Of a stretch of 64,000 nucleotides of DNA, positions 1 through 46,608 are shown piece by piece. The translations under genes and the position numbers were made by a program. The stretch lies in NCBI GenBank assembly GCA_934717555.1, contig CAKUYY010000005.1:3290-67289 (forward strand), read 5' to 3'. Source of the DNA: an uncultured Clostridium sp. (GTDB taxonomy: Bacteria; Bacillota; Clostridia; Oscillospirales; Acutalibacteraceae). Each line of letters begins with the position of its first letter. Within the stretch, counting starts at the first letter, position 1. The notes beneath the pieces were generated by a model. The model saw only the letters and a list, made by a program, of their open reading frames with translations. It did no database searches and had not been told where the DNA came from.

Positions 1-247
1 TGACCAGATTCTGGGCATTGGTGGACAGGAACAGCGTCCGCAGTTTATAGATAACCTCGTCGGCACGGGATTCGTCCTCGGCAATCTCCGGGTTCAGGCG
101 GATCAGGGCAGCCCGGACCATGGATTCCACCATGACGTCACTCTCATCCCGGTCCAGTTCTTCGGCAGGGATGTACTCCCAGCCGTTCCTCTGTAAGGTG
201 GTCAGGAGCATCTGCTCGGTGGTGTTGTCTTCGTTGAACTTTGGCAT
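1..247 (-). CDS. hsdR: Type I restriction enzyme R subunit (HsdR), first 82 codons only; the gene continues past the left window edge
   Basis: Truncated, so absent from the ORF track. The reverse complement from ATG(247) reads MPKFNEDNTTEQMLLTTLQRNGWEYIPAEELDRDESDV...IRLNPEIAEDESRADEVIYKLRTLF, a typical HsdR N-terminus. An AAGGAG RBS overlaps the hsdS stop 3 nt upstream. The position after hsdM-hsdS is canonical. Confidence 0.7.
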   Translation of the reverse strand, partial: MPKFNEDNTTEQMLLTTLQRNGWEYIPAEELDRDESDVMVESMVRAALIRLNPEIAEDESRADEVIYKLRTLFLSTNAQNLV

Positions 248-250
248 GAT

Positions 251-1414
251 TTACTCCTTTCTCCCGGTCCACAAAGCATCTTCCAAGATGCAGCGCTTGG
301 TGGCTTGTAGGGATGTGATGGTGTTTTGAAGGGCAGATTTGGATCTATTGGCTTTTTTGATGATTGCTTCAAACTCTTCTTGAAGATTTAATGGTGGAAG
401 TGGTTGTTTCAATTTGCATGCCTTTGATATGAGAAAATGAGCAACCGTTGTAGCTCCCAATCCGCCTTCGATTTGCGACCACACCGTCGGCATAGTAAGT
501 CCGTATGTAAAAAAAGTTTCATTTATCGAGAGCTTTTTTCTGAATAACAAAACATCGGCATCTTTAAAGTAGAAACGCTCCCCTTGCTTTATGATATACG
601 TTTTTCCAATAGTGCTTGTAGCTGAAACGATAATATCTCCTGCTTGTACTTGTTCTTCTTTTGGCCTGCTATTATAAAATTCTTCGGATACAAAAAATTC
701 ATTGGATAGTGGTTCTCCATTGGCTAGTTGAACCATATCTCTGACGCGAATAAATGGAATGTTCCCATCTGTTTTCCACTCTGATTTTAAGATACGTTTA
801 CTCGATGAAATTAAAAATATATTTTCCATTAAATCCACTGGCCATCTGCAGTGGTCGATATCGTCTTCACCAAACATCTCAATAAACCGCGCCTGCACCA
901 GGGCATCCGTTTCGGTGAGCAGTTTCTGATAGGCCTGCAAGGTGTCATTGATAGACCACAGCACCTCGGCCAGCTTCTTTTGCTCATCCATGGGCGGGAG
1001 GTCAAAGGTGTAGTTTTTCAGATTTTCCCACTTGACCCGGGGGGACAGAGAACCCGCTGATTTACCCATGGCAAATTCAAACCGATTGTCATTCTGAATG
1101 ATGAAGGGAAGCAATTCCGGCAAAAGCAGTTCCTCTTTGGCACGGATCACCGTAATGTCGCCGGAGCAGATGCCGTCAAAGGGGGCCTGTGCCGCCTTTT
1201 TCAAATAGGCACGTCTGCGGCCGAAGAGCATATCTCCCTTGTGGAACCGTTTGGTAAAAGTGTTATCGGTATCCATATCCCAGTTGGAAAGCGTGACGTC
1301 TCCCGGAGTGATATGCTCCAGGCCCACAATGGGTATACCGGTCTTATCATCCTTGTATGTTTCGCGGCTCTCCACCGCCACATCTCCCAATTTTATCTGT
1401 GACACATCACTCAC
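251..1414 (-). CDS. hsdS: Type I restriction-modification specificity subunit HsdS (two target-recognition domains)
   Basis: 387 aa. Two TRD-like halves are each followed by a conserved helical spacer (LPPMDEQKKLAEVLWSINDTLQAYQKLL and LPPLNLQEEFEAIIKKANRSKSALQ). The start overlaps the hsdM stop by 8 nt. Confidence 0.85.
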   Translation of the reverse strand: MSDVSQIKLGDVAVESRETYKDDKTGIPIVGLEHITPGDVTLSNWDMDTDNTFTKRFHKGDMLFGRRRAYLKKAAQAPFDGICSGDITVIRAKEELLLPELLPFIIQNDNRFEFAMGKSAGSLSPRVKWENLKNYTFDLPPMDEQKKLAEVLWSINDTLQAYQKLLTETDALVQARFIEMFGEDDIDHCRWPVDLMENIFLISSSKRILKSEWKTDGNIPFIRVRDMVQLANGEPLSNEFFVSEEFYNSRPKEEQVQAGDIIVSATSTIGKTYIIKQGERFYFKDADVLLFRKKLSINETFFTYGLTMPTVWSQIEGGLGATTVAHFLISKACKLKQPLPPLNLQEEFEAIIKKANRSKSALQNTITSLQATKRCILEDALWTGRKE

Positions 1415-2894
1415 CTCCCATCAGCGTGTTCAGAGCGTTGTAATTCTCCCACAGTTCTGCGGAAGCCGCACACCAGTCTTCATAGCGTTCCTGGGTTGTG
1501 CCAATCGAAACAGGCGCCGCTGTGGAAGCCGGGTCTTTTACATACAGCGGAATACTGAGAGCAAACCCATTTTTCTCAATTTCCCGGATGGACACCTTTT
1601 TGGCAATGGCACCATCGGTCTGAAATTCCCTGTAGGCCTTCTCGATGGTCTCGATATGGGACGGCTCCAGAAAACTTTCGGCGTTCTTTCGGGTCACCTC
1701 GTTCACGGCGTTGATGAACAGCACATGCCCCTTGTGGCTGTCCGGCTTTTTGGTTCGGCAGATGACGATGCAAGCCTCCATAGGGGAATTGTAAAAGAGA
1801 TTGGGCCCCAGGCCGATGACGCACTCCAGCAAATCGGAGCGCACCAGCTTTTCCCGCATATCCTTCTCCTCGTTGCGGAACAGCACCCCATGAGGAAAAA
1901 GGACCGCGCACCGGCCGGTGTCGTTTTCCATACTTTTCAAAATATGCTGGAAGAACGCATAGTCGGCGCGGCCCTGGGGCGGAACCCCCAGAAAGTTTCT
2001 GCCGTATTGGTCCGCCTCAAAGGCTTTGCGGTTCCACTGGCTGATGGAATAGGGCGGATTGGCCAGTACCACATCAAACTGTTTCAGCCGCCCGCCCTCC
2101 ACAAAGGCCGGAGCCGCGAGGGTGTCTCCGTTGACAATGTGGAAATCCTCAATGCCGTGGAGGAATAGGTTCATGCGCCCGATGGAGCAGGTCAGCGCAT
2201 TGAACTCCTGGCCATAAAGAGAGACATTGCGCCACTCCTTGTGCTGTTCTTTGAGATAGGCAACGGAAGAAACCAGCATACCGGCACTGCCACAGGTAGG
2301 ATCATAGATGGATTCTCCCGGACGAGGCTCCAGCAATTCTGCCATCAGGTGCACTACCGTCCGGTTTGTATAGAATTCCTGAGCGGTGTGGCCGCTGTCG
2401 TCAGCAAACTTCTTGATAAGATATTCATAGCCGCGCCCTAATTCATCCTCCGGACAGTTTGCCAGCGAAAGTGTCTGTGTGCTGAAATGCTCCAGCATAT
2501 CTTTCAGCAGACGATCGGGAAGCCGGCGCTTGTTGGTCCAGGTGCCGTCCCCGAAAATGCCGTGGAGCTTATCCGGATTCGCTTTCTCAATAGCGCGGAA
2601 AGCATCCTGGATTGCCTTGCCTACATCTTGTGTGACATTGCGCACAGCGTTCCAGTGGGCGTCTTTGGGGAGGACAAAGCTGTGAGTTTCCTCCCAGCTG
2701 TCTGCCTCGGGCCCGTTTTCCTGAATTGCCTTTGCGGTCTCCTCCTCATACACATCGTTGAGACGCTTGAAGAATAAAAGCGGAAAGATGTACTGTTTGT
2801 AGGAACCGGCGTCGATGTGGTTGCGAAGGAGAACGGCTGAACCCCACAGATAAGACTCCAGTTCCTCCTGGGTAATCTGCTTACTCATGGACAT
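1407..2894 (-). CDS. hsdM: Type I restriction-modification N6-adenine DNA methyltransferase subunit HsdM (paralog 1)
   Basis: 495 aa. It has the HsdM N-terminal domain (YIFPLLFFKRLNDVYEEE), EFYTNRTVV, motif I DPTCGSAGML and motif IV ANPPYS. It overlaps the upstream ORF by 14 nt. Confidence 0.9.
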   Translation of the reverse strand: MSMSKQITQEELESYLWGSAVLLRNHIDAGSYKQYIFPLLFFKRLNDVYEEETAKAIQENGPEADSWEETHSFVLPKDAHWNAVRNVTQDVGKAIQDAFRAIEKANPDKLHGIFGDGTWTNKRRLPDRLLKDMLEHFSTQTLSLANCPEDELGRGYEYLIKKFADDSGHTAQEFYTNRTVVHLMAELLEPRPGESIYDPTCGSAGMLVSSVAYLKEQHKEWRNVSLYGQEFNALTCSIGRMNLFLHGIEDFHIVNGDTLAAPAFVEGGRLKQFDVVLANPPYSISQWNRKAFEADQYGRNFLGVPPQGRADYAFFQHILKSMENDTGRCAVLFPHGVLFRNEEKDMREKLVRSDLLECVIGLGPNLFYNSPMEACIVICRTKKPDSHKGHVLFINAVNEVTRKNAESFLEPSHIETIEKAYREFQTDGAIAKKVSIREIEKNGFALSIPLYVKDPASTAAPVSIGTTQERYEDWCAASAELWENYNALNTLMGGE

Positions 2895-5298
2895 AACCTC
2901 CTTCCATCAGCAATTTCCGCATTTTAGCTTCCGCGGTACGGACGGCCTCCAGTGCGGCGAAGTAGTTCTGGCGAACCACGGCAGGAGGAATGGTTTCCTG
3001 CTTTTTCCGTTCAATATATCGCTTAACACTCAGGTCAAAACCGCCATCTTCCACGTCTTTCAGCGTGACAACTTTGCATCGCTCGATGACATCGGTGTAG
3101 TTGCTGTACAGGTCATACAGTGTCTGGATGTTGGCCGGCGAGAGCTCGTTTTGCGCCCGTTTTGGGGTATAGACCCCAGAGCCGTCAATCAGGCAGATGC
3201 GCCCCTTGTGGGTGTGGCTCTTCTTGTTGTTCAAGTAGAGGATACAGGCCGATACACCGGTGCTGTAAAATACACCGCTGGCCAGGGTGATGACGGCTTC
3301 CAACTTATCCGAAAGCACCAGCTGCTTGCGCATTTCGCCCTCTTTACCAGAATGGAAGAGCACGCCCTGAGGAAGCACTACAGCACAGCGACCATTTTTC
3401 GGATCCATGGATTTGACCATGTGCTGAAGCCAGGCGAAGTCTGCATTGGAGTCCGTCGGGCAGCCCCACAGATTTCGCCCATATTGGTCCGATTCAAACT
3501 GAGCAGATCCCCACTTGGCCATGCCGAAGGGAGGATTGGCAAGCACACAGTCAAAAGTTTTGATTCTGCCGCGTTCCAGAAACAGCGGATTGCGAAGCGT
3601 GTCTCCCTGTTTAACTTGAACATCTTTCGCGCCGTGAAGATACAAATTCATGCGGGCAATGGCAGACGTAGACAGGTTGTTCTCCTGACCGTAGATTCTA
3701 CCATAGGCAAGGCGGTCATTGTGCATGTGGCGGATTGCCTCGATTAACATCCCACCAGTGCCGCAGGCAGGATCGTATACGGTTTCTCCGGGCTGCGGGT
3801 CAAGCAGATTGACCATCAGCTTCACAATGGTACGGGGCGTGTAAAACTCGCCAGCGTTTTTCTTGGAAAGGTCTGCAAACTTTTTGATGAGGAATTCGTA
3901 GCTGTCGCCCATAATGTCTGCGGAGTAATCTTTGTTGCCGACCCGGATGCTGGACATGTGCTCGATCAGATTTTTGAGCCGCTCATCAGACAGCTTGTTC
4001 TTATCTGTCCAGGTGGCATCGTCAAAGCTGCTGAATACACCGGACAGGGTATCAGGATTTGCTTTCTCAATCCCGGTCATAGCGTTTACGATGGCCTTGC
4101 CGACATCCTTGGTTACCTTGCGGACGTCTTCCCAATGACAGCCATCGGGAATGACAAAGGAGTGCATTTCCTCGGCCTCTGCATATTCCACATCACCGCC
4201 GGAAAACGCCAGTGCATCTGCGTATTCCTCGTCATAAACATCCGAAATTCTCTTAAAAAAGAGAATGGGGGTTACATAGCTTTTGTACTCATCCTGGTTG
4301 ATGGGACCGCGTAAGATGTTGCAGGCCTCAAACAAATGGTTGAAAAGCTTCTTGCTTGTGGTTTCTTCCATTTCAGCTTCAGTGGATCGTACATCTTCCT
4401 CTGCAGCCTGCACGGCATTTTCGATTAGGGTGGCACGGTCTTCTCCGGACACCTTTCGAGTCTCATCCCGCTTGACCGGAATAGGAAGGTTCCGCATATG
4501 TCTCTCCATCACGGGAGTATATTTGTTTTCGAACTCTATCAGGATTTGAAGCAGCCGCTCGTCCAGAAAGGTCAAGGCATGTTTGCGAATGTCCGCCGGA
4601 ATACCATAGTAGGCCTCCGAAACACCGCCGCAGATGGCTGCCAAGGTATCACTATCTCCGCCGATGGAAATGGCGTTTCGGATGGCATCTTCAAAACCGG
4701 TGGATTCAAAGAAGGCCATCAATGCCTGAGGGACTGTATCTTGGCAGGTTTCATTGAAACGGTAAGTTGACCTGATGCCGTCGAGCGTAAAGTTCAGCAG
4801 GTAGTAGTTCTGCTCGATATAATCCCGGATTTCCAAAATACTGCTTCCGGTTCGGGCCATGTAAATGGCGGCTGCGGTAGCCTCAGCACCTTTTAACCCC
4901 TCTGGATGGTTATGGGTCACCTCGGTAATTTTTCGGGAAAGCAGCTTTGCTTCCTCCAGACTGCTGGCCGCAAAGCCGGCAGCGCTGACCCGCATGGCAG
5001 CTCCGTTTCCGAAGCTGTTATAGGGGTGCGGATCATCTGAAAATACCCACTTGGAGAACGCTGTGCCATATCCGCAGCCCGGATAATTTCTGCCTATGGA
5101 CTGCATGTACTCCACGGATTTTTGCGAAAGATTGCTATAATCCGGGGCGCTCTCCAAAATTGCCTTTGCCAATGCTAATGTCATGACGCTGTCATCGGTG
5201 GCAAAGCACTTATAGGTGAGAAAGTCAAAATCTTTGGTTTTAATATTGTTCCATTCAAAACGGGAACCTACGAGATCCCCAATGATTGCTCCTAGCAT
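2881..5298 (-). CDS. ADP-ribosylglycohydrolase (ARH/DraG-like) domain fused to a full HsdM-type N6-adenine DNA methyltransferase (paralog 2)
   Basis: The ORF track gives 2881..5361, which starts at a GTG. An ATG at 5298 preceded by AAGGAGacagaaatt is the more likely start. N-terminal ARH motifs: GAIIGDLVGSRFE, FATDDSVMT, SFGNGAAMRV, HNHPEG, GGDSDTLAAICGG. C-terminal HsdM motifs: PILFFKRISDVYDEEY, EFYTPRTIV, DPACGTGGML, ANPPFG. Confidence 0.8.
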   Translation of the reverse strand: MLGAIIGDLVGSRFEWNNIKTKDFDFLTYKCFATDDSVMTLALAKAILESAPDYSNLSQKSVEYMQSIGRNYPGCGYGTAFSKWVFSDDPHPYNSFGNGAAMRVSAAGFAASSLEEAKLLSRKITEVTHNHPEGLKGAEATAAAIYMARTGSSILEIRDYIEQNYYLLNFTLDGIRSTYRFNETCQDTVPQALMAFFESTGFEDAIRNAISIGGDSDTLAAICGGVSEAYYGIPADIRKHALTFLDERLLQILIEFENKYTPVMERHMRNLPIPVKRDETRKVSGEDRATLIENAVQAAEEDVRSTEAEMEETTSKKLFNHLFEACNILRGPINQDEYKSYVTPILFFKRISDVYDEEYADALAFSGGDVEYAEAEEMHSFVIPDGCHWEDVRKVTKDVGKAIVNAMTGIEKANPDTLSGVFSSFDDATWTDKNKLSDERLKNLIEHMSSIRVGNKDYSADIMGDSYEFLIKKFADLSKKNAGEFYTPRTIVKLMVNLLDPQPGETVYDPACGTGGMLIEAIRHMHNDRLAYGRIYGQENNLSTSAIARMNLYLHGAKDVQVKQGDTLRNPLFLERGRIKTFDCVLANPPFGMAKWGSAQFESDQYGRNLWGCPTDSNADFAWLQHMVKSMDPKNGRCAVVLPQGVLFHSGKEGEMRKQLVLSDKLEAVITLASGVFYSTGVSACILYLNNKKSHTHKGRICLIDGSGVYTPKRAQNELSPANIQTLYDLYSNYTDVIERCKVVTLKDVEDGGFDLSVKRYIERKKQETIPPAVVRQNYFAALEAVRTAEAKMRKLLMEGGYVHE

Positions 5299-5389
5299 AA
5301 TTTCTGTCTCCTTATGCGGACTCTTTATGATGCTGCATGAATAGGATATAGCATTTGTCACCTACATTCATCACGGGGCGATTCCTCCT

Positions 5390-7009
5390 TCAAAAAGTCT
5401 GAAGCTTGGTGAGAACTTTAGTCCAACGTTTTTCAGCTGCAGCTACAGTTTCTTTGTAGTTCGTCAGTTCTTCGAGGTACTCCTTGACCACCGCTTTCTG
5501 TGTGTCTAGCAGGGGGATGGGAACTTCCAAAACTTTCAGATCCCGATAGCTGATATTCATCACAGTCGTGCCTTGTTGGGCGCTGCTAATGAGCTTGTTA
5601 CCGATAGGGCTATCCAAGAAAATTTTCAAGTAGATGCTGTCGAGCATCTTGGCGTCTGGCCGGATTACGATCAAATTGGACGAGGCGATACATGGATAAC
5701 TCTGTGAGTGAAACACAGCGGTTCGAATTGCGGTTCCCCTGGCAGGAAGAAGTACATCCCCCTCTTGCAGCAGATAGTTGAATACTTTACGTTCCTCTTC
5801 CTGCAAGTGCTCCAACCCGGCGTAGTCAATTTCATAATCGCCTATATTGGAGATGTTCACTATACCGATGTTACCGGATGGATCTTTCTTGGTTATGGCT
5901 TTGCCACGGAATACCTCTGCAACATTCCCAATCATATCTTTCCGGAGGTTAGAACTTTGATAGTTCTGATAGTCCTCGTCTTGTTGCGCAAAAATCTGAT
6001 CAATGTTCCAGTCTCCTTGTTCTTCCAGCTCGGACAGCATGACAAAGGTATCGTCTTTCACTTCTAGTGATGTGACCGCCTCTCGGCGGGTCTTCTTGGA
6101 AGAAGAGTATCTCCGGACAACAATATCAGTGTCGTCGTACGGCCGATTGTTTTCGAGGTCCAGTAGATAGACCTTAATGCCGCAATATGATATGGTCCCT
6201 TCAGGAAGTTCTCCAATTTCCCTAATGGTATAAGTCGTCTGAACAAACTGTCGAAGATCGCTAATCTTTCCAGACGCAAAGGTGATTCGGCCTGGAAGAG
6301 TAATCACCAGGCGACCGCCATCATTCAAGTGGAGCAATAGATTCTCTAGTGCAACCATCTCGAATTCTCTACATATAAAGTTTGGGTCGTCTGACAGCAT
6401 CCGGCCGCCAAAGTTCGGACAGGCAAAGATAAGATCGAATCGGCTGTTTGTGAACTCATAGCGGTAAATGTCAGATATAATGACTTCCACATTATCATAT
6501 TTTCCGAAGATGTTTTCTAAGACTCGGGCATAAATCATGTTTTGAGTCGTAAGCACAAACTTCGAGTTAATGTTCTCATCAATTATAGACTGCAAGTTTG
6601 GGACAAACTTTTCGGCCTCGGCGATGAGAACCGTTTGGGGGTGGAAGACAAAACGATCTGTGTAGACATTTACCAACGCTTTGGGGAGCAAAGGCTTCTT
6701 GGATGTTGATAATATTTGAGCCATGAGTCCTTCCAAATCAGCATGTCGGACCTGATCGATACTCTTGTAGACAAGAATAAAATGTTCCTTGTCACGGAAA
6801 GGATTTCTGATATTTAGTTTGTCGGCGGATTCCAACAAGGAAATATAAAGCTCATCGTCAGTGGCCTTAGCGTTCTGGTTTTGGAATCGTTTCTTGACTT
6901 TATCTATCAGAACGATCGCAGCAATGCTATCATCATGCGCGACTGCACTTCTGATCACATTCCAGTAGGCTGGGAGTTTATTTTGAACGTCGCTTCTCAT
7001 CGTTTTCAT
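5390..7009 (-). CDS. Methyltransferase-like protein (degenerate motifs I and IV) fused to a single HsdS-type target-recognition domain
   Basis: 539 aa. FDLIFACPNFGGRM and LNDGGRLVITLPGRITF resemble N6-MTase motifs IV-VI, but CPNF replaces NPPF/Y and no DPxxGxG loop is seen. The C-terminal ~200 aa resemble a half HsdS (GDVLLPARG, LIVIRPD, VPIPLLDTQKAVVKEYLEEL coiled-coil). An AGGAGG RBS sits at 7013-7018. Confidence 0.6.
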   Translation of the reverse strand: MKTMRSDVQNKLPAYWNVIRSAVAHDDSIAAIVLIDKVKKRFQNQNAKATDDELYISLLESADKLNIRNPFRDKEHFILVYKSIDQVRHADLEGLMAQILSTSKKPLLPKALVNVYTDRFVFHPQTVLIAEAEKFVPNLQSIIDENINSKFVLTTQNMIYARVLENIFGKYDNVEVIISDIYRYEFTNSRFDLIFACPNFGGRMLSDDPNFICREFEMVALENLLLHLNDGGRLVITLPGRITFASGKISDLRQFVQTTYTIREIGELPEGTISYCGIKVYLLDLENNRPYDDTDIVVRRYSSSKKTRREAVTSLEVKDDTFVMLSELEEQGDWNIDQIFAQQDEDYQNYQSSNLRKDMIGNVAEVFRGKAITKKDPSGNIGIVNISNIGDYEIDYAGLEHLQEEERKVFNYLLQEGDVLLPARGTAIRTAVFHSQSYPCIASSNLIVIRPDAKMLDSIYLKIFLDSPIGNKLISSAQQGTTVMNISYRDLKVLEVPIPLLDTQKAVVKEYLEELTNYKETVAAAEKRWTKVLTKLQTF

Positions 7010-7034
7010 CCTCCTACTTCTGATCTTTGAGTGT

Positions 7035-7063
7035 ATTGTACCATGATTTCACACACACGTCAA
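7035..7063 (-). promoter_or_regulatory. Sigma-A type promoter of the RM-derived operon
   Basis: The minus strand reads TTGACG-17 nt-TACAAT, with TGg immediately upstream of the -10 (extended -10-like). It lies about 25 nt upstream of the AGGAGG RBS and ATG at 7009. Confidence 0.6.
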
Positions 7064-7219
7064 CCGTGAGCATTATTTTGGTATGTAAGTACTAAAATAA
7101 TGTTTTGCTTTATAAAACTACTACTTTACAATTCTGCAAGCAGATTACATAGACGAGACGAAAAAGCGGCTACTCATCACTCTAAAGGAGAAATCTATTC
7201 CTTTCTGTCTTATCATATG

Positions 7220-7253
7220 AAAAAGGGTTGTCCCAAACAGGACAGCCCTTTTT
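7220..7253. terminator. Rho-independent terminator hairpin (bidirectional) isolating the RM operon from upstream debris
   Basis: AAAAAGGGTTGTCC-caaaca-GGACAGCCCTTTTT. The 13-bp stem has one G-U pair and is flanked by A and T runs. Confidence 0.65.
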
Positions 7254-7308
7254 CTACCATCTTTAATTTTTTGCCTCACTCCTTGCTTCGATCAGAAAAT
7301 CTGTTTTC

Positions 7309-7449
7309 CTAGGTTGTCAGTTCCTTCTGCTCCTGTTCGCTGGCGTAGAATTTTTGAATCTCAGGTACAAGAAACCGAGAGAAGGAATCAATGATGGACT
7401 GCGGCAGTTCGATTGTGTATGGGTTCTGATGTTTTTCTTGGCTGGCCAT
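7309..7449 (-). CDS. Small hypothetical protein (46 aa), possibly a mobile-element accessory gene
   Basis: Below the ORF-track cutoff. It reads MASQEKHQNPYTIELPQSIIDSFSRFLVPEIQKFYASEQEQKELTT and is followed by the 7220-7253 terminator. The RBS is weak. It resembles small proteins I associate with Firmicute conjugative elements, but this is unverified. Confidence 0.3.
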   Translation of the reverse strand: MASQEKHQNPYTIELPQSIIDSFSRFLVPEIQKFYASEQEQKELTT

Positions 7450-7497
7450 GGTGAGTTGCCCCAATAGCAAAACCTTTGCGGCTCAACTCAGCCCATC

Positions 7498-7590
7498 TCA
7501 CACTCCTTCCCGGAAGATACACAGCTGCCAAATATTGTGCCACTGTCCAGAACGAGTGTGGGCGATTTCAAAACCTGCGGATTTTCTCAT
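7498..7590 (-). CDS. Candidate 30-aa micro-ORF whose RBS lies inside a long hairpin
   Basis: MRKSAGFEIAHTRSGQWHNIWQLCIFREGV. The GGGAAGGGAG RBS is 5 nt upstream of the ATG and forms the 3' arm of the 7596-7643 inverted repeat. Confidence 0.2.
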   Translation of the reverse strand: MRKSAGFEIAHTRSGQWHNIWQLCIFREGV

Positions 7591-7595
7591 AGTAC

Positions 7596-7643
7596 TCCCT
7601 TCCCATCTGGGCTTTTCTCATGAAACCCCCAGATGGGAAGGGA
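7596..7643. repeat. Perfect 16-bp inverted repeat with a 16-nt loop
   Basis: TCCCTTCCCATCTGGG (7596-7611) and CCCAGATGGGAAGGGA (7628-7643) are exact reverse complements. Confidence 0.9.
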
Positions 7644-7699
7644 ACGAATCGAATGATACTGGATAAGTTGGTCAAGCGCCTGTTGAATTAACAGCTTCG

Positions 7700-7936
7700 T
7701 TAAGGGGATTTGGGCAGTACTGCGTGTTCATCTGCACCTGCATGTATCTCAGCGGCCTTGACACTACTGAAATTGTAGCCATGACGTTTACAAAATTTGC
7801 GATAGCGCTCAGTGAAGGCAGCAAGACTCTGACTGCACACACAGTCCAGATGCCAGAAAGCCTCAGCAAAATCGACCCATTTCTGGCTGCCATCCTCCCG
7901 TGCAGGGCTTTTAATATGGTTTAGAAAGCCGTCCAT
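7700..7936 (-). CDS. Hypothetical 78-aa ORF, possibly a gene fragment
   Basis: ORF track only. There is no recognisable motif and the RBS is weak. It sits in a region with several short overlapping ORFs in different frames, which is consistent with a decayed gene. Confidence 0.2.
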   Translation of the reverse strand: MDGFLNHIKSPAREDGSQKWVDFAEAFWHLDCVCSQSLAAFTERYRKFCKRHGYNFSSVKAAEIHAGADEHAVLPKSP

Positions 7937-8102
7937 TTCTCATTGCCGATTCCATCAGTTTCGTGACTCGAACATACTTCATTGTTCTTGCAGTTGCCAG
8001 ACCGCAAGCTTATGTTACAACATAAGCAGTTTTTCTTTCTTCATCATCCGCATTTGCCTTCTTTTGAACCACTCGCCATGCGAGTGGCTTTCTTTATACA
8101 AG

Positions 8103-8131
8103 AAAAGAGCGCGGGAACTCCGCGCTCTTTT
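8103..8131 (+). terminator. Rho-independent terminator-like hairpin
   Basis: AAAAGAGCGCGG-gaact-CCGCGCTCTTTT, a 12-bp perfect stem ending in a T run. Confidence 0.5.
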
Positions 8132-8431
8132 GAAAGGAAAGGAAAAAATGAAAAGAAATATATATAAAGTCCTCAAAAGGAACTTCTTGATGGTCCGGCT
8201 CTCTTGCCGGCTTTGTATGATGGGCTGTTATCCTTTGGATTGATTTTATCTTACAACGCTTTTGTGACATAACCATCAAGGCATTGTGAAAGTTTCAAGA
8301 AAATCATAAAAAATTTGTAAATAGAGAACACCATAAAATTGGATTTCTTTGGATTTTATTCTCACTTTTTAGGATGGCTGTTGTCTGGACTATGTTATGA
8401 TAGGCTATAACCAAAGTTGAAACGTTATTTT

Positions 8432-8965
8432 TTACAGCGCCGTTCCCTTCTTGGGAACTCGGAAAGCCTGTATGTCGACCTTCTCTAGAGTTAGCAGCTT
8501 TATTTTTTTGCCTATACCGCCGGCGTAGCCCGTCAGACTTCCGTTTGTCCCTACCACTCTATGACAAGGGATAAGGATAGAGATGGGATTGTGCCCTACT
8601 GCGCCGCCCACCGCCTGTGCTGACATATTTTTTTCTCTGTGCTTTTCCGCAATTCTACACGCTATTTCCCTATAGGTGATGACCTGGCCGTAAGGGATCT
8701 GTCTAAGCATCTCCCATACCTCCAGACGGAACGCTGACCCTTTCAAAGAGATTGGAGGAAAAAATTCTGGATTCTTCCCCTGGAAATACACGTTCAGCCA
8801 CCGCCTTGTCTGCTGGAATACCAGCAGATCCTGTTCCTCCTGTCGTCTGTCTATCCCGGCGGCGAAATATTTCTGCCCGTCAAACCACAGACCCGTCAGG
8901 TTTTCCCCATCGCTCGCCATAGTAATAGCCCCTAGCGGCGACTGGTATCGGTTGGTATATTGCAT
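8432..8965 (-). CDS. ogt: Methylated-DNA--protein-cysteine methyltransferase (O6-alkylguanine transferase)
   Basis: 177 aa with the active-site motif IPCHRVV followed by GSLTGYAGG. Confidence 0.9.
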   Translation of the reverse strand: MQYTNRYQSPLGAITMASDGENLTGLWFDGQKYFAAGIDRRQEEQDLLVFQQTRRWLNVYFQGKNPEFFPPISLKGSAFRLEVWEMLRQIPYGQVITYREIACRIAEKHREKNMSAQAVGGAVGHNPISILIPCHRVVGTNGSLTGYAGGIGKKIKLLTLEKVDIQAFRVPKKGTAL

Positions 8966-8969
8966 ATTT

Positions 8970-9638
8970 TTATCCCCCCTTCTTAGACTTACGGGAATCT
9001 ATCTTCTTTTTGGGAGTGTAATCCCGCATCCCTTCAATAGCTCCGCCCGCCACCGCCCAGAGGTACAGGCTGGCAACACTCCCACAGGGGGAAAACCGCC
9101 GGCGGTACTTTTCAAACAGCTTCCGGTCAATTTTCCGATGATGGTATACCATGCGGAGTCCCCGCTGTAAGGCCAGATCGTCAAAGCTGAAGATATCGGG
9201 CCGCTGCATACAAAAAAGCAAAATCATCTCTGCGGTCCAGATACCCACGCCTTTTAAGGCGGAAAGATCCCTGATCGCTTCCTTATCCGGCTTGTTCCAA
9301 ATGCCTTCCAGGTCAAAAATGCCGGAACGGATCTTTTGGGCAAATTCCATGATGTATTCCGCTTTTCGGAAGGTGATGCCAAATTTTTGCAGCCCCTCCG
9401 TCCCTGCTTCCACAACAGTATCGGCGTTGACTGTGCCCAGCGCCTCCCGCATTCTCTTCCAGATGGTGGCCTGCGCCTTGGTGGAGATCTGCTGCCCCAC
9501 AATATGATGGATCACGGAAGAAAACAGGTCTGGGTCCACCTCCCGGTCGATATGTCCCACCCGTTGGATCACTTCTCCTATCTTGTGATCCTTTTGTTTT
9601 AAGTATTCTATTTCCCTCTCGCCGTAATGAAAATACAT
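8970..9638 (-). CDS. alkA: DNA-3-methyladenine glycosylase II family (HhH-GPD)
   Basis: 222 aa. It has HhH-GPD features (LSALKGVGIWTAEMILLFCMQRPDIFSFDDLALQRG) and lies immediately upstream of ogt. Confidence 0.75.
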   Translation of the reverse strand: MYFHYGEREIEYLKQKDHKIGEVIQRVGHIDREVDPDLFSSVIHHIVGQQISTKAQATIWKRMREALGTVNADTVVEAGTEGLQKFGITFRKAEYIMEFAQKIRSGIFDLEGIWNKPDKEAIRDLSALKGVGIWTAEMILLFCMQRPDIFSFDDLALQRGLRMVYHHRKIDRKLFEKYRRRFSPCGSVASLYLWAVAGGAIEGMRDYTPKKKIDSRKSKKGG

Positions 9639-11289: not shown

Positions 11290-11373
11290 TGGTGCGAGCG
11301 ATGGGACTTGAACCCACACGTCATAGACACACGCACCTCAAACGTGCCTGTCTGCCTGTTCCAGCACACTCGC
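11290..11373 (-). tRNA. tRNA-Leu (anticodon GAG), class II with long variable arm, encoded CCA
   Basis: Folded by hand from the reverse complement: acceptor GCGAGTG/CGCTCGC; D-arm CTG-GAACAGGCAGA-CAG; anticodon stem CACGT/GCGTG with loop TTGAGGT; variable stem GTC-TAT-GAC; T-arm GTGGG-TTCAAGT-CCCAT; discriminator A plus CCA. Confidence 0.9.
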
Positions 11374-12048: not shown

Positions 12049-13097
12049 CTGTGTATTCCCCCTTCAGCCGCCAGACGCAACTGAGCAATCAATTCTTCTA
12101 AAATCACCCGGTTATCTACTCGGGAACTTTTTAAACGGATATCCGCTTCCAAGATCAGGCGAAGGCTTTGGCGCAATTGTTCCATTGACATGTTTCGGAC
12201 ATCCCTCTCTGCGTTTCGCAAACGGAACTCTTTCCCCTTATAGGGAAAACTCTGCGATAATTGGAAAGGCGCTACGCCGCTTTCCAGCGCCACCTTTACC
12301 CGGTAAAGATCCACATAGGCAGACGAGAGGACCGCCAAGATCATCACCGGCTCTTCTTTCTGATAAAGCAGTAAATCCAACTGCCGGTACGCTTGGTCGT
12401 ACCGCCCCGCTACCAGGGCCTTGGACAAAACAAATACCGTAGTCTCTAAGTTCTGCGTGACTACCTGGTCGATATCCTGCCGGGTAATTTCCCTCCCTTG
12501 GGCAAATGCGCACAGCTTTTCCATTTCTTGGCTTAATACCAAGAGGTCTTCCCCACAAAGCTGTATCATCCAACCCGCATCGGCCCGACTTAGGGTATTT
12601 CCCCTTTTTTCCGCCCATCCTACCAGTTGTTTTTCCAGTGTCGGAGTATCCCGTTTGCATAGTTCCGCTACACAGCCAGCTTTCTGCGCGGCCGCAAGAA
12701 ACTTCTTCCATTTGGCCGATTTTTTTACGTCCATCTCCAGGGTAGACTGGCTCACAATGAGTACAGTAGTTTCCGGCAAGTCCTCCAGAAGTTCATAAAG
12801 CTTTTTTAGTCCCGAAGCCGGCAGCGTTTCCACATTGAGATCATGCACCACAACGCACTTGCGATCCGCCAGCATCGGCAGGGCCTCCACTGCATCCGCG
12901 ATACTATCCACATCGCTGATGCCTGAAGGAAAAGACTGAAAATTAAAATCCGAATATCCTTTTCCCAAAATCTTCTGTACCATCTGCGTTGTGTAGTGTT
13001 TAATGAGATACTTTTCTTCCCCATAGAGCACATAAAGCCGGTCAAAAGTTTTTTCCCGAATCTGCTTTTTTAAATCTGTTTCTTTAATCTGAGGCAT
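12045..13097 (-). CDS. holA: DNA polymerase III subunit delta
   Basis: 350 aa. The N-terminus (YVLYGEEKYLIKHY) and size are typical, and it shows the conserved comEC-holA synteny. Confidence 0.8.
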   Translation of the reverse strand: MPQIKETDLKKQIREKTFDRLYVLYGEEKYLIKHYTTQMVQKILGKGYSDFNFQSFPSGISDVDSIADAVEALPMLADRKCVVVHDLNVETLPASGLKKLYELLEDLPETTVLIVSQSTLEMDVKKSAKWKKFLAAAQKAGCVAELCKRDTPTLEKQLVGWAEKRGNTLSRADAGWMIQLCGEDLLVLSQEMEKLCAFAQGREITRQDIDQVVTQNLETTVFVLSKALVAGRYDQAYRQLDLLLYQKEEPVMILAVLSSAYVDLYRVKVALESGVAPFQLSQSFPYKGKEFRLRNAERDVRNMSMEQLRQSLRLILEADIRLKSSRVDNRVILEELIAQLRLAAEGGIHR

Positions 13098-13099
13098 TC

Positions 13100-15325
13100 T
13101 TATTCCCTCCTTATACTGACCGCCCCGCTGGAATCCTGTTCTAAAACAAGGTTTCCCTGCCCACCGGTGACAAAGATTTCCCCGGCCTGTGGCGTATAAC
13201 GAACAATCCCTTCTCTGGCTGTTTCCTCGCTGACCGAAAATACAGCGTATTGGCTGGAGATTTCCCCTCCCCTTGCGTCTGGAACCCCTGTGATATAAAA
13301 ATGGCTATCCAGCCCCGGTGTCTCCGCTTTCCCTGTAGGGTCAACGGTTATTTGAAGATCCCCTATTGACAAGTGTGTATACCCGTTTTTCATATCCGTA
13401 TAAACAGAAGCCTTTCCCCACAGGTCTACTTGTGTTTGGCCGCTCACCATTGCCGCCTCTTGCGCTACATGCATACTGTTCCAAAGCCGTTCTTCTTTCT
13501 TCGCTTCTTCCGGCAACTCCAGCAATCGGGGAGGATATGACAAAATAACTTGATACGCCCCTTGGTTACCTTCCTGTTCTATACTGGGAAGTACCATATA
13601 ATCCAAACTGTGCACATTCTTCTCCCGGAAATGCCGTTGTACCGCCTCGGGCGCATAACGGCCTCCTCCACAGGAGATCACAGCCCCATGCCCCTGATAG
13701 GAGAGTGTCACGGCGCATCCGTCCCCCACGTCCAAAATAGCGACCTCCACAGAATTCCTGTGGAACACCCATTGGCATACGCCTCCAAAAATCAGGAGCA
13801 AACAGCTAAACCATGCCGCTATCCTCCGATTAGAGCGTGTAGGAGACCACCAGACCACTGCCAGCAGTACCAGCGTCCCCATAAGCCATAACAATAGAAA
13901 GTCTTCTCCCACCGATAGGCTCGCAAAGGGAATGTCAGCCAAACAGGAAGCACACGCCTGCAGATATTGAATCAGCAGGCTGGAAAGGAATAGAAAAGGC
14001 ATTGCCAAAAAGGAAACCACGCCCGTAAAAGATAAGAGAACCGCGGCCATTGTCCCTATCATCATCAACATAGCAGGCCCTACCAGCAACAAATTGGCAA
14101 GAATCGATACCAGGGAAAACTCCTGGAAAGTAAGCAAAATAACCGGGATTGTAAACAGTGTGGCGGATACTGTAACTGCCGCAGAATCGCCGATCCATTT
14201 CCATATCCGTTTTCCGTGGGAAATGCGGGATACCACTTTTTGATTCCATTGGTTTAAAAGCTTCCCGGAAACTAAAAGGATGCCTAAGGTACAGGCAAAG
14301 GATAACAACAGCCCTACATCTCCCGCCGCAAAGGGGTTGGCTACAGTGAGAATCCCAACAGCCGCCCCTAAGGAATTGAGAGAATCTGGTTCCCTATATA
14401 TCATCATCCCCAAAAGCATCAGAATGGACATGAGGCCCGCGCGCATCACGGAAGGGGAAAATCCGGTGACCGCCATAAATGCTATCACTCCAATGATAGA
14501 CAACCCCGCCGCCATCCGCCTGCGCAAGCGTAGGAACAGGAAAAGATGCAGCAGGCATTGGGTAACAGCGGCCATGTGCAAACCGGATACTGCCAGCAGA
14601 TGGGAAACCCCTATTCTCTGGAAATCCTCCTGGGTTTCCTGCGTCATCTGCTCTTTTGCGCCCAGCAACACCCCGGCGGCCATCCCCGACTGTTTCGAAG
14701 GAAACAGTAACCGTATGCGATGAAGAATTTCCTCCCGGGCTTTCAAGGCGTAATAATAGGGAGGGTAATGATCCGGGGATTGGATGGAAAACGGCTCATA
14801 CTCATAGAGAAAACCGGTCAGCCGGATTCCTTTGGATTGGTAGTAAGCGGCGGAATCCAGCCCGCTTCCCCTTTCCGGGACAAAAAGGCGGACCTTGCCC
14901 GTCACCCGGTCATATACGCCGGCATCCAGCGCATGGGTAGCGGTAATCCGAATATGGATGGACTGAGGCGCCCCTTCTATTTCCACCCGATCCGTCTGGA
15001 TCTCATAATAGTAACGCCCGTCTTTCTGATAGGGCAACTCACAGATGGAGCCGGAGATCTCCATATCCCGGCCGTCCAGAAACTCCACCGGCCGCACCAG
15101 CCACATCTGTCCCAAGCCATATGCGATGCACGCCATCCCGGCGGCTATACAGGCGATGGGCACAGCCTTTTCCCTGCGCAGGCGGGGAATCAAAAGAGAA
15201 ACCACAAAGAATAACAAGCATCCCGCCGCCAGATACCAAGAAATACTTTCCCCAAAGAAAACAGCGGCTGCCTGACCAAGCAGATATGAAAAACCTACCA
15301 GTGCAAGCGGCCGCTTCATAATCAT
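13100..15325 (-). CDS. comEC: DNA internalization-related competence protein ComEC/Rec2
   Basis: 741 aa. It is polytopic with a competence domain (GVSHLLAVSGLHM) and a C-terminal metallo-beta-lactamase-like region. Confidence 0.85.
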   Translation of the reverse strand: MIMKRPLALVGFSYLLGQAAAVFFGESISWYLAAGCLLFFVVSLLIPRLRREKAVPIACIAAGMACIAYGLGQMWLVRPVEFLDGRDMEISGSICELPYQKDGRYYYEIQTDRVEIEGAPQSIHIRITATHALDAGVYDRVTGKVRLFVPERGSGLDSAAYYQSKGIRLTGFLYEYEPFSIQSPDHYPPYYYALKAREEILHRIRLLFPSKQSGMAAGVLLGAKEQMTQETQEDFQRIGVSHLLAVSGLHMAAVTQCLLHLFLFLRLRRRMAAGLSIIGVIAFMAVTGFSPSVMRAGLMSILMLLGMMIYREPDSLNSLGAAVGILTVANPFAAGDVGLLLSFACTLGILLVSGKLLNQWNQKVVSRISHGKRIWKWIGDSAAVTVSATLFTIPVILLTFQEFSLVSILANLLLVGPAMLMMIGTMAAVLLSFTGVVSFLAMPFLFLSSLLIQYLQACASCLADIPFASLSVGEDFLLLWLMGTLVLLAVVWWSPTRSNRRIAAWFSCLLLIFGGVCQWVFHRNSVEVAILDVGDGCAVTLSYQGHGAVISCGGGRYAPEAVQRHFREKNVHSLDYMVLPSIEQEGNQGAYQVILSYPPRLLELPEEAKKEERLWNSMHVAQEAAMVSGQTQVDLWGKASVYTDMKNGYTHLSIGDLQITVDPTGKAETPGLDSHFYITGVPDARGGEISSQYAVFSVSEETAREGIVRYTPQAGEIFVTGGQGNLVLEQDSSGAVSIRRE

Positions 15326-15418
15326 TTCTCCAATCCTTTTGCAGATTGCGGGGAATTTCTTTTCCTCATAATTTTCTGAAAAAAAGAAATTCCCTTTCTC
15401 CTCAATAAGACAAACTTT

Positions 15419-15970
15419 TTATTTGACAAACAGAGGCAGCGGCTCCAGGAAAATAATATCTTTCCGGTTTGCCGCGTCTCCTTCTGCCAATACGCTGGCA
15501 CAGCCCACAATGTTTCCGCCGGCTTCCTGTACCAGCTTTTCCAAAGCGGAAAGGGATTCTCCCGTACTGATCACATCATCTACAATCAGAACCCGTTTTC
15601 CCTTCAAAGACTGATAATCCTCCTCCGCCAAATACAGTACCTGCTGTTTCGCGGTTGTAATGGACTTCACTTCCACCTTAATGGGATTACGCATATACAG
15701 CTTGACACTCTTACGCGCTACCACATATTTGCGGCATCCCTGGCGGGCCATTTCATAGCAAAGTGGAATGCCCTTTGCTTCCGCTGTGATCACAATATCA
15801 TGTTCCGGGCACTTTTCCAACAGGGCAGCCGCGGCTTTCTCTGTCAGCTCCACATCGCCAAACATGATAAATGCAGCGATATCCAATTTATCGTCCACTG
15901 GGCACAACGGCAAATCCCGTTCACAACCCGCTATGGTCATTTTATAAACTCGACTCATTGATTCAACCAT
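15419..15970 (-). CDS. Phosphoribosyltransferase family protein (purine PRT-like)
   Basis: 183 aa with the PRPP-binding motif VLIVDDVISTGESL. Confidence 0.7.
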   Translation of the reverse strand: MVESMSRVYKMTIAGCERDLPLCPVDDKLDIAAFIMFGDVELTEKAAAALLEKCPEHDIVITAEAKGIPLCYEMARQGCRKYVVARKSVKLYMRNPIKVEVKSITTAKQQVLYLAEEDYQSLKGKRVLIVDDVISTGESLSALEKLVQEAGGNIVGCASVLAEGDAANRKDIIFLEPLPLFVK

Positions 15971-16000
15971 CTTTCCTATTCTTGATTCACGTTTTCCGGA

Positions 16001-16339
16001 TCAGCCCGGAGGCCACTTCATGGAACGCCCGCCCAACAAATGAAAATGCAAATGCTGCACTGTCTGGCCGCCGTCTTCCCCGCAGTTATTGACAATACGG
16101 TATCCCTTATCGAGCTTGAGCTGACGGGCAAGCTGGGCCGCGACCAAATAAATATGGGCCACCACCCCGCTGTTCTGTTCGTTGAGCTCATTGGCAGAAC
16201 CAATGTGTTCCTTTGGGATCAACAGAACATGTACCGGTGCCTGAGGGTCCAGATCATAAAAGGCCACGACCTGATCATCTTCATAAACCTTGTTAGAAGG
16301 GATTTCTCCCGCAGCAATTTTACAAAAAATACAATCCAT
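16001..16339 (-). CDS. Histidine triad (HIT) family nucleotide-binding protein
   Basis: 112 aa with CIFCKI near the N-terminus and the HLHFHLLGG triad. Confidence 0.9.
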   Translation of the reverse strand: MDCIFCKIAAGEIPSNKVYEDDQVVAFYDLDPQAPVHVLLIPKEHIGSANELNEQNSGVVAHIYLVAAQLARQLKLDKGYRIVNNCGEDGGQTVQHLHFHLLGGRSMKWPPG

Positions 16340-16421
16340 CAGTCTACACCTCTTTCCTGCATCACTTGTTCATCAAGGCAGGGAGAAAAAGAAGCGCTTT
16401 TTCTCCCTTTTTCACCTTTTC

Positions 16422-46295: not shown

Positions 46296-46608
46296 ACAAT
46301 CAGTTGAAATACGTGGAAGAGGAATAGTAGGGACATTGAACCCTTCAGAGAGTTGCCGGTTGGTGGAAGGCAGTGGGGAATTTGTTTTGAACTGGCCTTG
46401 AAGTAGCGCGTTGAATCCTTGCAAGAGAGGTAGTAGGCGTTGCCGGGACCTGACCGTTACAGCAGGAGGATATAAGATCATAAAGTTTGATCCGTATCTA
46501 AAAAGAGGGCATATTTCTTTCCGACAAGAAATATGAATTAGAGTGGTACCGCGTGGAACGATTACGAGTTCTTCGTCTCTAAGGAAATGGAGATGAAGGG
46601 CTTTTTTT
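46296..46608 (+). promoter_or_regulatory. T-box riboswitch leader of leuA
   Basis: It carries an AGAGAG motif, a GGTGGAA distal-loop-like element and the T-box sequence AATTAGAGTGGTACCGCG (46536-46553). The terminator is CTTCGTCTC-10 nt-GAGATGAAG followed by GGCTTTTTTT (46571-46608). Confidence 0.85.

Follow-up and report, generated by a model that had tools for sequence, protein, structure and literature searches.

Why should a restriction operon begin with a methylase that appears unable to methylate? The question is raised by a Type I restriction-modification operon in the 64-kb stretch of contig CAKUYY010000005.1 analysed here (the window; uncultured Clostridium sp., Acutalibacteraceae, GenBank assembly GCA_934717555.1), the first gene of which encodes a methyltransferase-like domain without catalytic motifs fused to half of an HsdS specificity subunit. 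We coined the names psiMS and PsiMS for this gene and its product. On the comparative evidence given below we consider it fairly probable that PsiMS is the dead descendant of a single-chain Type I methyltransferase, composed of an HsdM-like part, one target-recognition domain (TRD) and one helix, and that it now serves as a sequence-specific DNA-binding regulator. It probably sits as a homodimer on a palindromic operator at its own promoter and autoregulates the Type I operon, with repression as the probable mode.

Results

The methylase-like part has kept its fold and lost its motifs

A preliminary description of the window had noted a 539-amino-acid open reading frame (ORF), and such a frame is present on the minus strand (7009..5390, first ATG at 7009). 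Because AGGAGG is spaced 9 nt from the ATG at 7000 and nearly all PsiMS homologs have 536 amino acids, the real product is probably encoded by 7000..5390. The gamma-class N6-adenine methyltransferase layout that had been read by eye in the middle of the protein was recovered by three methods. Pfam N6_Mtase matched residues 149-308 weakly (E-value 1.8e-4, 21.4 bits against a cut-off of 20.4). With hhalign, PsiMS aligned to the profile of HsdM1 from the same operon at an E-value of 1.4e-6, with FDLIFACPNFGG aligned to FDCVLANPPFGM, whereas the match to HsdM2 was far weaker (0.027). Finally, the structure of the protein was predicted. A first AlphaFold2 model from 22 close homologs was good in its N-terminal half but had a predicted local distance difference test score (pLDDT) below 50 in the TRD, and was superseded by a monomer run on 62 diverse sequences (pLDDT 93.5, predicted template modelling score 0.89). 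Foldseek gave a probability of 1.0 against structures of HsdM, M.TaqI and CamA, which places the protein in the Rossmann-type methyltransferase fold. The top match of the second model in the Protein Data Bank was 7eew_A, a fused HsdM and half-HsdS methylase of Vibrio vulnificus (E-value 1.7e-22, 621 columns), and the second was the streptococcal protein Esub1 (8VSR/8VSQ; target-normalised template modelling score 0.87-0.91, 0.90 for 8vsr_B; root-mean-square deviation 1.9 Å). Further matches were methylases with a built-in recognition domain, CamA over ~530 alignment columns and M.TaqI over ~440.

The motifs required for catalysis were lost from this fold, as the preliminary description had suspected. 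In an alignment of 22 homologs (57-86% identity) motif IV reads (C/S/L/T/F)-P-x-F-G-x-R, in which P198, F200, G201 and R203 are invariant. The glycine-rich DPxxGxG loop for binding of S-adenosylmethionine (SAM) is absent from PsiMS; the residues IAEAEKF stand in its place and are conserved family-wide, and E131 within this motif I remnant is also invariant. We then extended the comparison to a library clustered at 50% identity, which held 101 PsiMS clusters with E ≤ 1e-30, ~85 of them full-length (480-630 amino acids) and reaching down to 24% identity. The catalytic N or D at the first residue of motif IV was found in 0 of the 22 homologs and 0 of the ~85 representative clusters, and the acidic residue of motif II was not conserved in any of the ~85. 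Neither NPP(F/Y) nor a GxG loop occurred in the full-length clusters, except for four far outliers that have a GxG loop along with an odd motif IV. A search with the N-terminal 344 amino acids alone retrieved only the PsiMS family itself and no active relatives. Since the losses are shared by clusters down to 24% identity, the alignments indicate that the degeneracy is an old, family-wide trait under selection and not a local mutation or decay. The picture of an M-like fold without SAM loop or catalytic motif IV, fused to a half-HsdS, thus holds for a large family under purifying selection. A decaying pseudogene was also considered for psiMS and is ruled out by the family-wide conservation; one homolog is 98% identical.

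The specificity-type part is a single, constant TRD

The C-terminal region matches Pfam Methylase_S (residues 360-515, E-value 4.9e-9) and the PADLOC model Specificity_I (E-value 1.4e-18), and in structure it matches Esub1 and the S part of 7EEW. A TRD fold followed by the conserved helical region of HsdS is therefore present, with one TRD and one helix per chain in place of the two TRDs and two conserved regions of a full HsdS, and the description of this region as a half-HsdS was correct. The TRD module is far less close to the HsdS of the same operon, with which it shares about 20% identity (E-value 0.02), than to Esub1. The C-terminal 192 amino acids are 38% identical to Esub1 (E-value 2e-44), and the alignment runs ungapped through Esub1 residues 63-70.

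Esub1 (SpyM3_0890 of Streptococcus pyogenes; structures 8VSQ/8VSR) is a homodimer held together by its C-terminal helices, with a conserved DNA-compatible surface that includes an 'insertion helix' that canonical S subunits lack; its authors called it 'characteristic of a transcription factor or repressor', and its DNA target and function were unknown in that work (PMC11754733). PsiMS shares with it the TRD type with insertion helix, the dimerisation helix and a RGTA-N6-TACY palindrome in front of the gene (see below). Unlike PsiMS, Esub1 is a stand-alone protein of 198 amino acids without a methylase-like domain, encoded by a conserved streptococcal gene away from Type I genes, whereas PsiMS carries an N-terminal helical and methylase-like extension of 350 amino acids. 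Esub1 as a truncated pseudogene of psiMS was ruled out, the 198-residue protein being conserved across many Streptococcus species. At the streptococcal loci L081-L085 and L087 a gene for an ArAE_1 transporter and/or a DUF2130 gene usually lies downstream on the same strand.

Conservation by region was expressed as mean pairwise identity across 41 operons that encode all four proteins. In PsiMS the N-terminal helices had a value of 0.27, the methylase-like domain 0.51, the TRD 0.67 (minimum 0.55) and the C-terminal helix 0.45, as compared to 0.50 for TRD1 and 0.16 for TRD2 of HsdS from the same operons. A TRD that provided a second, strain-specific restriction target would be expected to diversify as TRD2 of HsdS does. 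Judged by these identities, the TRD of PsiMS does not behave as a variable specificity determinant: it is the most constant part of the protein, unlike TRD2 of HsdS, and this indicates a constant ligand. The preliminary view of PsiMS as carrier of a second DNA-recognition specificity, in the sense of Type I systems, does not agree with this constancy nor with the closer relationship to Esub1 than to the operon's own HsdS.

A conserved palindrome accompanies the psiMS promoter

We aligned 300 nt of upstream sequence from each of 75 family members, one in the window and 74 in further loci. This revealed a 20-bp palindrome with the family consensus TTTRGTAT-N4-ATACYAAA and the core RGTA-N6-TACY, which is present at the psiMS promoter in 72 of the 75 upstream regions. 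Upstream of psiMS the core has a density of 3.23 per kb, as opposed to 0.086 per kb when all 1.28 Mb of DNA from the loci are counted. The palindrome of the window is its sole match in 64 kb, and 0 of 100 shuffles gave a match. No full palindrome was found elsewhere in the operons; the other RGTA-N6-TACY matches lack the TTT/AAA arms, and several of them are a Walker-A coding stretch of hsdR. Among the three loci seemingly without a site, L079 has a perfect copy about 1.8 kb upstream of the gene and L054 has the right arm at the 5' limit of the upstream stretch, immediately followed by a TTGACA promoter, and neither is a clear counter-example. The outer core position varies between G and A, and many palindromes are composed of mixed half-sites.

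The site is placed at defined distances from the core promoter. The psiMS promoter of the window is the top promoter match in 1..8500 (10 of 12 positions plus the extended -10 TG), and near-consensus promoters occur at the equivalent place in related psiMS loci. From palindrome centre to -35 hexamer we counted 15-17 nt in 27 loci and 22-24 nt in 28 loci, the window included, while in six loci of a distant subfamily the -35 hexamer lies inside the palindrome spacer (distance class -3). With the best promoter just upstream of psiMS and the downstream genes tightly packed or overlapping, the gene is indeed the operon leader it had been taken for.

The same core accompanies the TRD module in other settings. 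In five of seven Esub1-family genes it overlaps the -10 region and precedes the ATG by 34-42 nt (S. pyogenes, upstream of SpyM3_0890: ATAGTATCTAAATACTAT), and a sixth has a TGTA...TACA variant. Among relatives at 24-28% identity, GGTAT...ATACC inverted repeats are found at the promoters of L209 (GGGTATTGCAATACCC) and L211 (TTTTGGTATTGACAATACC, with one extra spacer base and TTGACA within the spacer), and a third has two GTA-N7-TAC sites. A second RGTA-N6-TACY was seen inside the esub1 coding sequence of L083 and L085, at +447. In the very distant relatives L208 (~1990-2070) and L211 (~1430-1455) the GTA...TAC inverted repeats have a core spacer of 7 instead of 6 nt, which recalls the setting of spacer length by coiled-coil length in Type I enzymes.

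No conserved gene was found upstream of psiMS in 57 loci, the only recurrent one being rlmD-like (12 of 57); PsiMS is therefore the only constant neighbour of the palindrome, the two solitary cases described below included. The same 57 loci held no conserved upstream gene that could be a classical controller. In a motif-first scan, metagenome contigs were searched for the 18-base TTTTGGTAT-N4-ATACCAAAA with gene content ignored, which gave at least 120 matches. Among the matches listed, 41 were an unrelated satellite-like GTATCG repeat, and 20 of the 79 non-satellite matches adjoin a PsiMS-family gene, mostly at 70-125 nt from its estimated start and in two instances at about 285 nt. The satellite-like repeat consists of GTATCGCGATAC units and was found in L088, L090, L091 and about 38 other metagenome loci (samples Ga0209781 and Ga0209364). 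By these comparisons the association of the palindrome with the rare PsiMS family is far beyond chance, and the palindrome at the psiMS promoter is probably the constant ligand of the TRD. The earlier suggestion of a DNA sensor thus comes close in one sense: judged from comparative evidence, a single fixed palindrome at its own promoter is most likely what PsiMS reads.

psiMS heads Type I operons of several kinds

Downstream of psiMS the window encodes an ADP-ribosylglycohydrolase (ARH)-HsdM1 fusion, HsdM2, a full-size HsdS and HsdR (Table 1). ARH-hsdM1 likely starts at ATG 5298, after AAGGAG; the GTG at 5361 given by the ORF finder looks over-extended. The gap between psiMS and hsdM1 is 91 nt, hsdM1 and hsdM2 overlap by 14 nt, hsdM2 and hsdS overlap by 8 nt, and 3 nt separate hsdS from hsdR. 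The GC content of psiMS (44.8%) is below that of hsdM1 (51%) and hsdM2 (54%) and equal to that of hsdS (44.8%), so that the gene is more AT-rich than its neighbours, as had been noted by eye, with respect to the two methylase genes and not with respect to hsdS.

Table 1. Features of the psiMS operon and its promoter region in the window
Feature	Position	Strand	Remarks
psiMS, dead-methylase/half-HsdS fusion	5390..7000	-	536 aa from ATG 7000; stop 5392-5390
N-terminal all-helical domain, aa 4-122	6644..7000	-	Least conserved part of PsiMS, 27% mean identity
Rossmann-type methyltransferase-like domain, aa 123-324, catalytically degenerate	6038..6643	-	Pfam, hhalign, model, Foldseek
Motif I remnant VLIAEAEKFVPNL replacing DPxxGxG SAM loop	6593..6631	-	Homolog alignment
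Motif IV remnant CPNF replacing NPPF/Y	6410..6421	-	In the family, P and F invariant, first residue variable
Single TRD, Esub1 type, aa 356-497	5519..5944	-	'Insertion helix' aa 405-412 retained
C-terminal long helix, aa 498-539	5393..5518	-	Equivalent of HsdS conserved region and Esub1 dimerisation helix (PMC11754733)
Ribosome-binding site AGGAGG	7010..7015	-	9 nt before ATG 7000, abutting ATG 7009
Sigma-70-type promoter	7035..7063	-	TTGACG (7063-7058), 17-nt spacer, TACAAT (7040-7035), extended -10 TG
Candidate operator palindrome TTTGGTATGTAAGTACTAAA	7077..7096	.	Centre 23 nt upstream of -35 hexamer
ARH-HsdM1	2881..5298	-	ARH domain (PF03747, E-value 1e-34) fused N-terminally to NPPF-type (m6A) HsdM1
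HsdM2	1407..2894	-	NPPY-type (m4C-class) methylase subunit (PMC5100572)
HsdS	251..1414	-	Full-size, two TRDs
hsdR start (ATG 247)	1..247	-	Gene runs off the window

Non-canonical Type I systems that form N6-methyladenine (m6A) and N4-methylcytosine (m4C) possess an M1 with NPPF and an M2 with NPPY (Morgan et al., PMC5100572), and the structure of the PacII system is available (PMC9613975). HsdM1 of the window scored best with chain 7vru_A (470 bits as compared to 399 for chain B) and HsdM2 with 7vru_B (575 as compared to 430), and the gene order M1-M2-S-R is also that of PacII-type systems. By sequence, the genes downstream of psiMS are a non-canonical m6A/m4C Type I system of the PacII type. 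Since the two HsdM proteins correspond to M1 (NPPF) and M2 (NPPY), the operon probably yields m4C on one DNA strand and m6A on its partner strand. Term searches of PMC5100572 and PMC9613975 brought up neither an upstream dead-methylase/half-S gene nor an ARH fusion.

A distribution scan with one genome per species provided 80 psiMS loci. Their hosts were Lachnospiraceae, Clostridia, Paenibacillus, Bacillus, Veillonellaceae and lactobacilli, further metagenome-assembled genomes (MAGs) labelled Melainabacteria (Gastranaerophilales, Vampirovibrio) and rumen Alphaproteobacteria, and a few MAGs with other labels. Where family members have a name in the source databases, 'restriction endonuclease subunit S', 'type I restriction enzyme M protein' and 'hypothetical protein' are among the names used. 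Where enough downstream sequence was present (69 loci), hsdM came next on the same strand in 67, at a median gap of 14 nt, an M1+M2 pair was found in 54, and psiMS was solitary in two. The next hsdM was an ARH fusion in 45 of the 67 loci and free of ARH in 22. At eight loci hsdM follows psiMS and no second hsdM was detected in the sequence at hand; seven of these belong to the distant subfamily (~35-38% identity), and full S and R genes were seen directly in the single-hsdM loci L069, L071, L075 and L076. With ARH in only 45 of 67 loci, single-hsdM operons and solitary loci, psiMS is tied to Type I operons generally and not to the ARH fusion or the M1/M2 pair. In this PsiMS differs from the PacII-type systems, and the proposal that it is the dedicated partner of the ARH-HsdM fusion is not supported.

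Some further observations concern the surroundings of the gene. In L011 (11599-12585) and L030 (11621-12607) a gene for a 328-residue protein with a C-terminal HNH motif (PF01844, E-value 1.4e-4) lies between the leader and ARH-hsdM1, and gaps of ~1 kb at the leader/hsdM1 junction also occur in L022, L036 and L040. The solitary psiMS of L066 (Limosilactobacillus allomucosae) faces a convergent cluster on the minus strand (12332-17671) which encodes a 1128-residue protein, helicase-like by eye, and a 341-residue protein that starts with MKFDYIVGNPPYQ (methylase-type NPPY motif); this cluster may be another defence island. Upstream of the operon in the window, the 1.3 kb from 7100 to 8431 contain no ORF of more than 80 amino acids; terminator-like hairpins occur in several places there, one of them at 7244-7229 (minus strand). 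This stretch is followed, both on the minus strand and both judged by eye, by a putative Ogt-type methylguanine methyltransferase (8432-8965, PCHRV) and a putative AlkA-type glycosylase (8970-9638). An Rfam scan of the window found a tRNA (11293-11373, minus strand) and a T-box leader (46305-46583, plus strand).

Discussion

How PsiMS may act at its promoter

If PsiMS is a regulator derived from a dead methylase, two protomers would pair via the C-terminal helix, as in the Esub1 crystal and in half-size S subunits, and the two identical TRDs would read the two half-sites of the palindrome. The bulky clamp so formed, similar to the M2S unit of a Type I enzyme, would lie on or next to the -35 hexamer and hinder RNA polymerase, and the outcome would be negative autoregulation of the whole psiMS-hsdM1-hsdM2-hsdS-hsdR transcript. 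Speculatively, a flipped adenine of GTA may still be held by stacking on the P-x-F that motif IV has retained, with no methylation taking place. Two points make us favour repression: near-consensus promoters should need no activator, and the site runs over the -35 hexamer in the distant subfamily and over the -10 region in Esub1 genes.

Several points weigh against this reading. In the main family the palindrome precedes the -35 hexamer and is centred near -52 to -59, a position that would allow activation as well. The link between PsiMS and the palindrome is a comparative one, and the loss of SAM binding is predicted from motifs. The conserved arms, at about 9 bp with only ~2 variable bases between them, exceed the usual length of a Type I half-site, and one arm of the palindrome in the window departs from the consensus at two positions. 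No site was seen upstream of the Esub1 relative L086 or, by eye, of the distant relative L210. Furthermore, 59 of the 79 non-satellite matches among those listed in the motif-first scan have no PsiMS-family gene nearby, many of them lying inside long ORFs, and the palindrome is therefore not exclusive to the family; a sample of 15 such PsiMS-free matches had no common neighbouring gene.

Other roles for PsiMS

PsiMS could instead be a structural subunit of the restriction complex, which would provide a second specificity for HsdR and the active HsdM proteins or a scaffold for ARH-HsdM1. It is always encoded with Type I genes, and an HsdS-type TRD with its helix normally docks HsdM. We nevertheless judge this role improbable, as the TRD is conserved and not diversifying, ARH is optional and some relatives are solitary or stand-alone. 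Moreover, a dead methylase that guides HsdR to sites which cannot be methylated would be self-toxic, Esub1 formed no clear complex with HsdM in vitro (PMC11754733), and the promoter palindrome would be left unexplained.

The same palindrome, together with the conservation of the TRD, is hard to reconcile with a pure decoy or guard, that is a mimic of the M2S clamp that soaks up or senses DNA-mimic anti-restriction proteins and has no role in transcription, since such a protein needs no fixed DNA target. The idea draws on the closest fold match, 7EEW, whose entry includes Ocr, on the binding of Ocr and ArdA to the M1M2S complex of PacII (PMC9613975), on the phage protein Prx, which binds the DNA face of Esub1 (PMC11754733), and on the existence of decoy HsdMS systems such as Ronin (bioRxiv 10.1101/2023.04.06.535777). 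With no effector gene such as ronA linked to psiMS, we regard this alternative as no less improbable than the subunit role.

We give little credence to the possibility that an unlinked host factor binds the palindrome, or that the palindrome marks the boundary of a mobile element, with PsiMS having some other role. The palindrome does occur without PsiMS in metagenomes, but it goes along with the TRD module in Bacillota, Melainabacteria, Alphaproteobacteria MAGs and core streptococcal genes alike, its spacing to the promoter is fixed, and no other neighbour of it is conserved. That PsiMS is still an enzyme which methylates the palindrome via unconventional motifs (xPxF, EAEK) and so switches the promoter epigenetically is very improbable in spite of the intact Rossmann fold and the invariant P, F, G and R around motif IV and E131, because A-E-A-E-K replaces the SAM loop, the N/D of motif IV and the acidic residue of motif II are unconserved in ~85 clusters, and the Esub1 relatives share the palindrome and lack a methylase domain.

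Relation to known systems

Returning to PsiMS as an autoregulator, its best structural counterpart is 7EEW, the 'intact MTase' (methyltransferase) of V. vulnificus YJ016, which has the same single-chain order of M domain, TRD and helix. By its entry 7EEW was deposited as a methyltransferase, under a title that names Ocr, whereas PsiMS is devoid of SAM loop and catalytic motif IV. In function, PsiMS would resemble restriction controllers. RptR is a 9-kDa four-helix autorepressor encoded by the first gene of Type I islands in Gammaproteobacteria; it binds TAGCTA repeats, regulator and binding site are conserved together, and its authors suspect release by a phage factor (PMC12255303). Like RptR, PsiMS is encoded by the first gene of its operon. 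Diverse bacteria have conserved both the protein and its candidate palindromic site, which in 72 of 75 loci is found at the core promoter and falls into fixed spacing classes relative to the -35 hexamer. Unlike the four-helix RptR and the C proteins of Type II systems with their helix-turn-helix, PsiMS is a 61-kDa pseudo-enzyme made of a methylase-like domain and a TRD and is predicted to bind DNA via the latter, a restriction-enzyme domain. By this analogy it would be a controller built from the enzyme's own parts.

Ronin, a decoy HsdMS whose function is independent of methylase activity (bioRxiv 10.1101/2023.04.06.535777), likewise reuses a Type I M/S module beyond methylation-directed restriction. 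It differs from PsiMS in that HsdM and HsdS are separate and HsdM is catalytically intact, and in the 61-residue toxin RonA and the usual absence of hsdR. In the window hsdR begins at 247 and the operon has no room for an extra gene.

As a further, possible but unlikely, extension of the autoregulator reading, phage DNA mimics (Ocr, ArdA or Prx-like proteins) that block the Type I enzyme may also strip the repressor from its operator and thereby induce the operon. If true, the construction of the regulator from M and S parts would be accounted for, as would the binding of Prx to the DNA face of Esub1, and RGTA-N6-TACY would be the predicted DNA target of Esub1.

Implications for the control of Type I systems

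The PacII-type system, the fold architecture in its active form (7EEW) and the solved C-terminal relative Esub1 are already known. In the literature accessible to our searches, we came across no account of the family as a catalytically dead M-S fusion, none of its operator and none of the DNA that Esub1 recognises. Work on how Type I systems are controlled has dealt mostly with the protein level, as in the degradation of HsdR by ClpXP; a first repressor acting on transcription of their operons, RptR of Gammaproteobacteria, was not reported until 2025 (PMC12255303). PsiMS points to a second, unrelated and widespread solution, in which a duplicated methylase-specificity fusion has lost catalysis and would have kept sequence-specific DNA binding. 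For annotation, this is a reason not to name the 536-residue PsiMS proteins 'restriction endonuclease subunit S'. RGTA-N6-TACY becomes a concrete candidate DNA target for Esub1, a protein with a crystal structure and a phage-encoded binding partner, and for the bacteria that carry psiMS it is suggested that the very phage proteins directed against restriction operons may also induce them.

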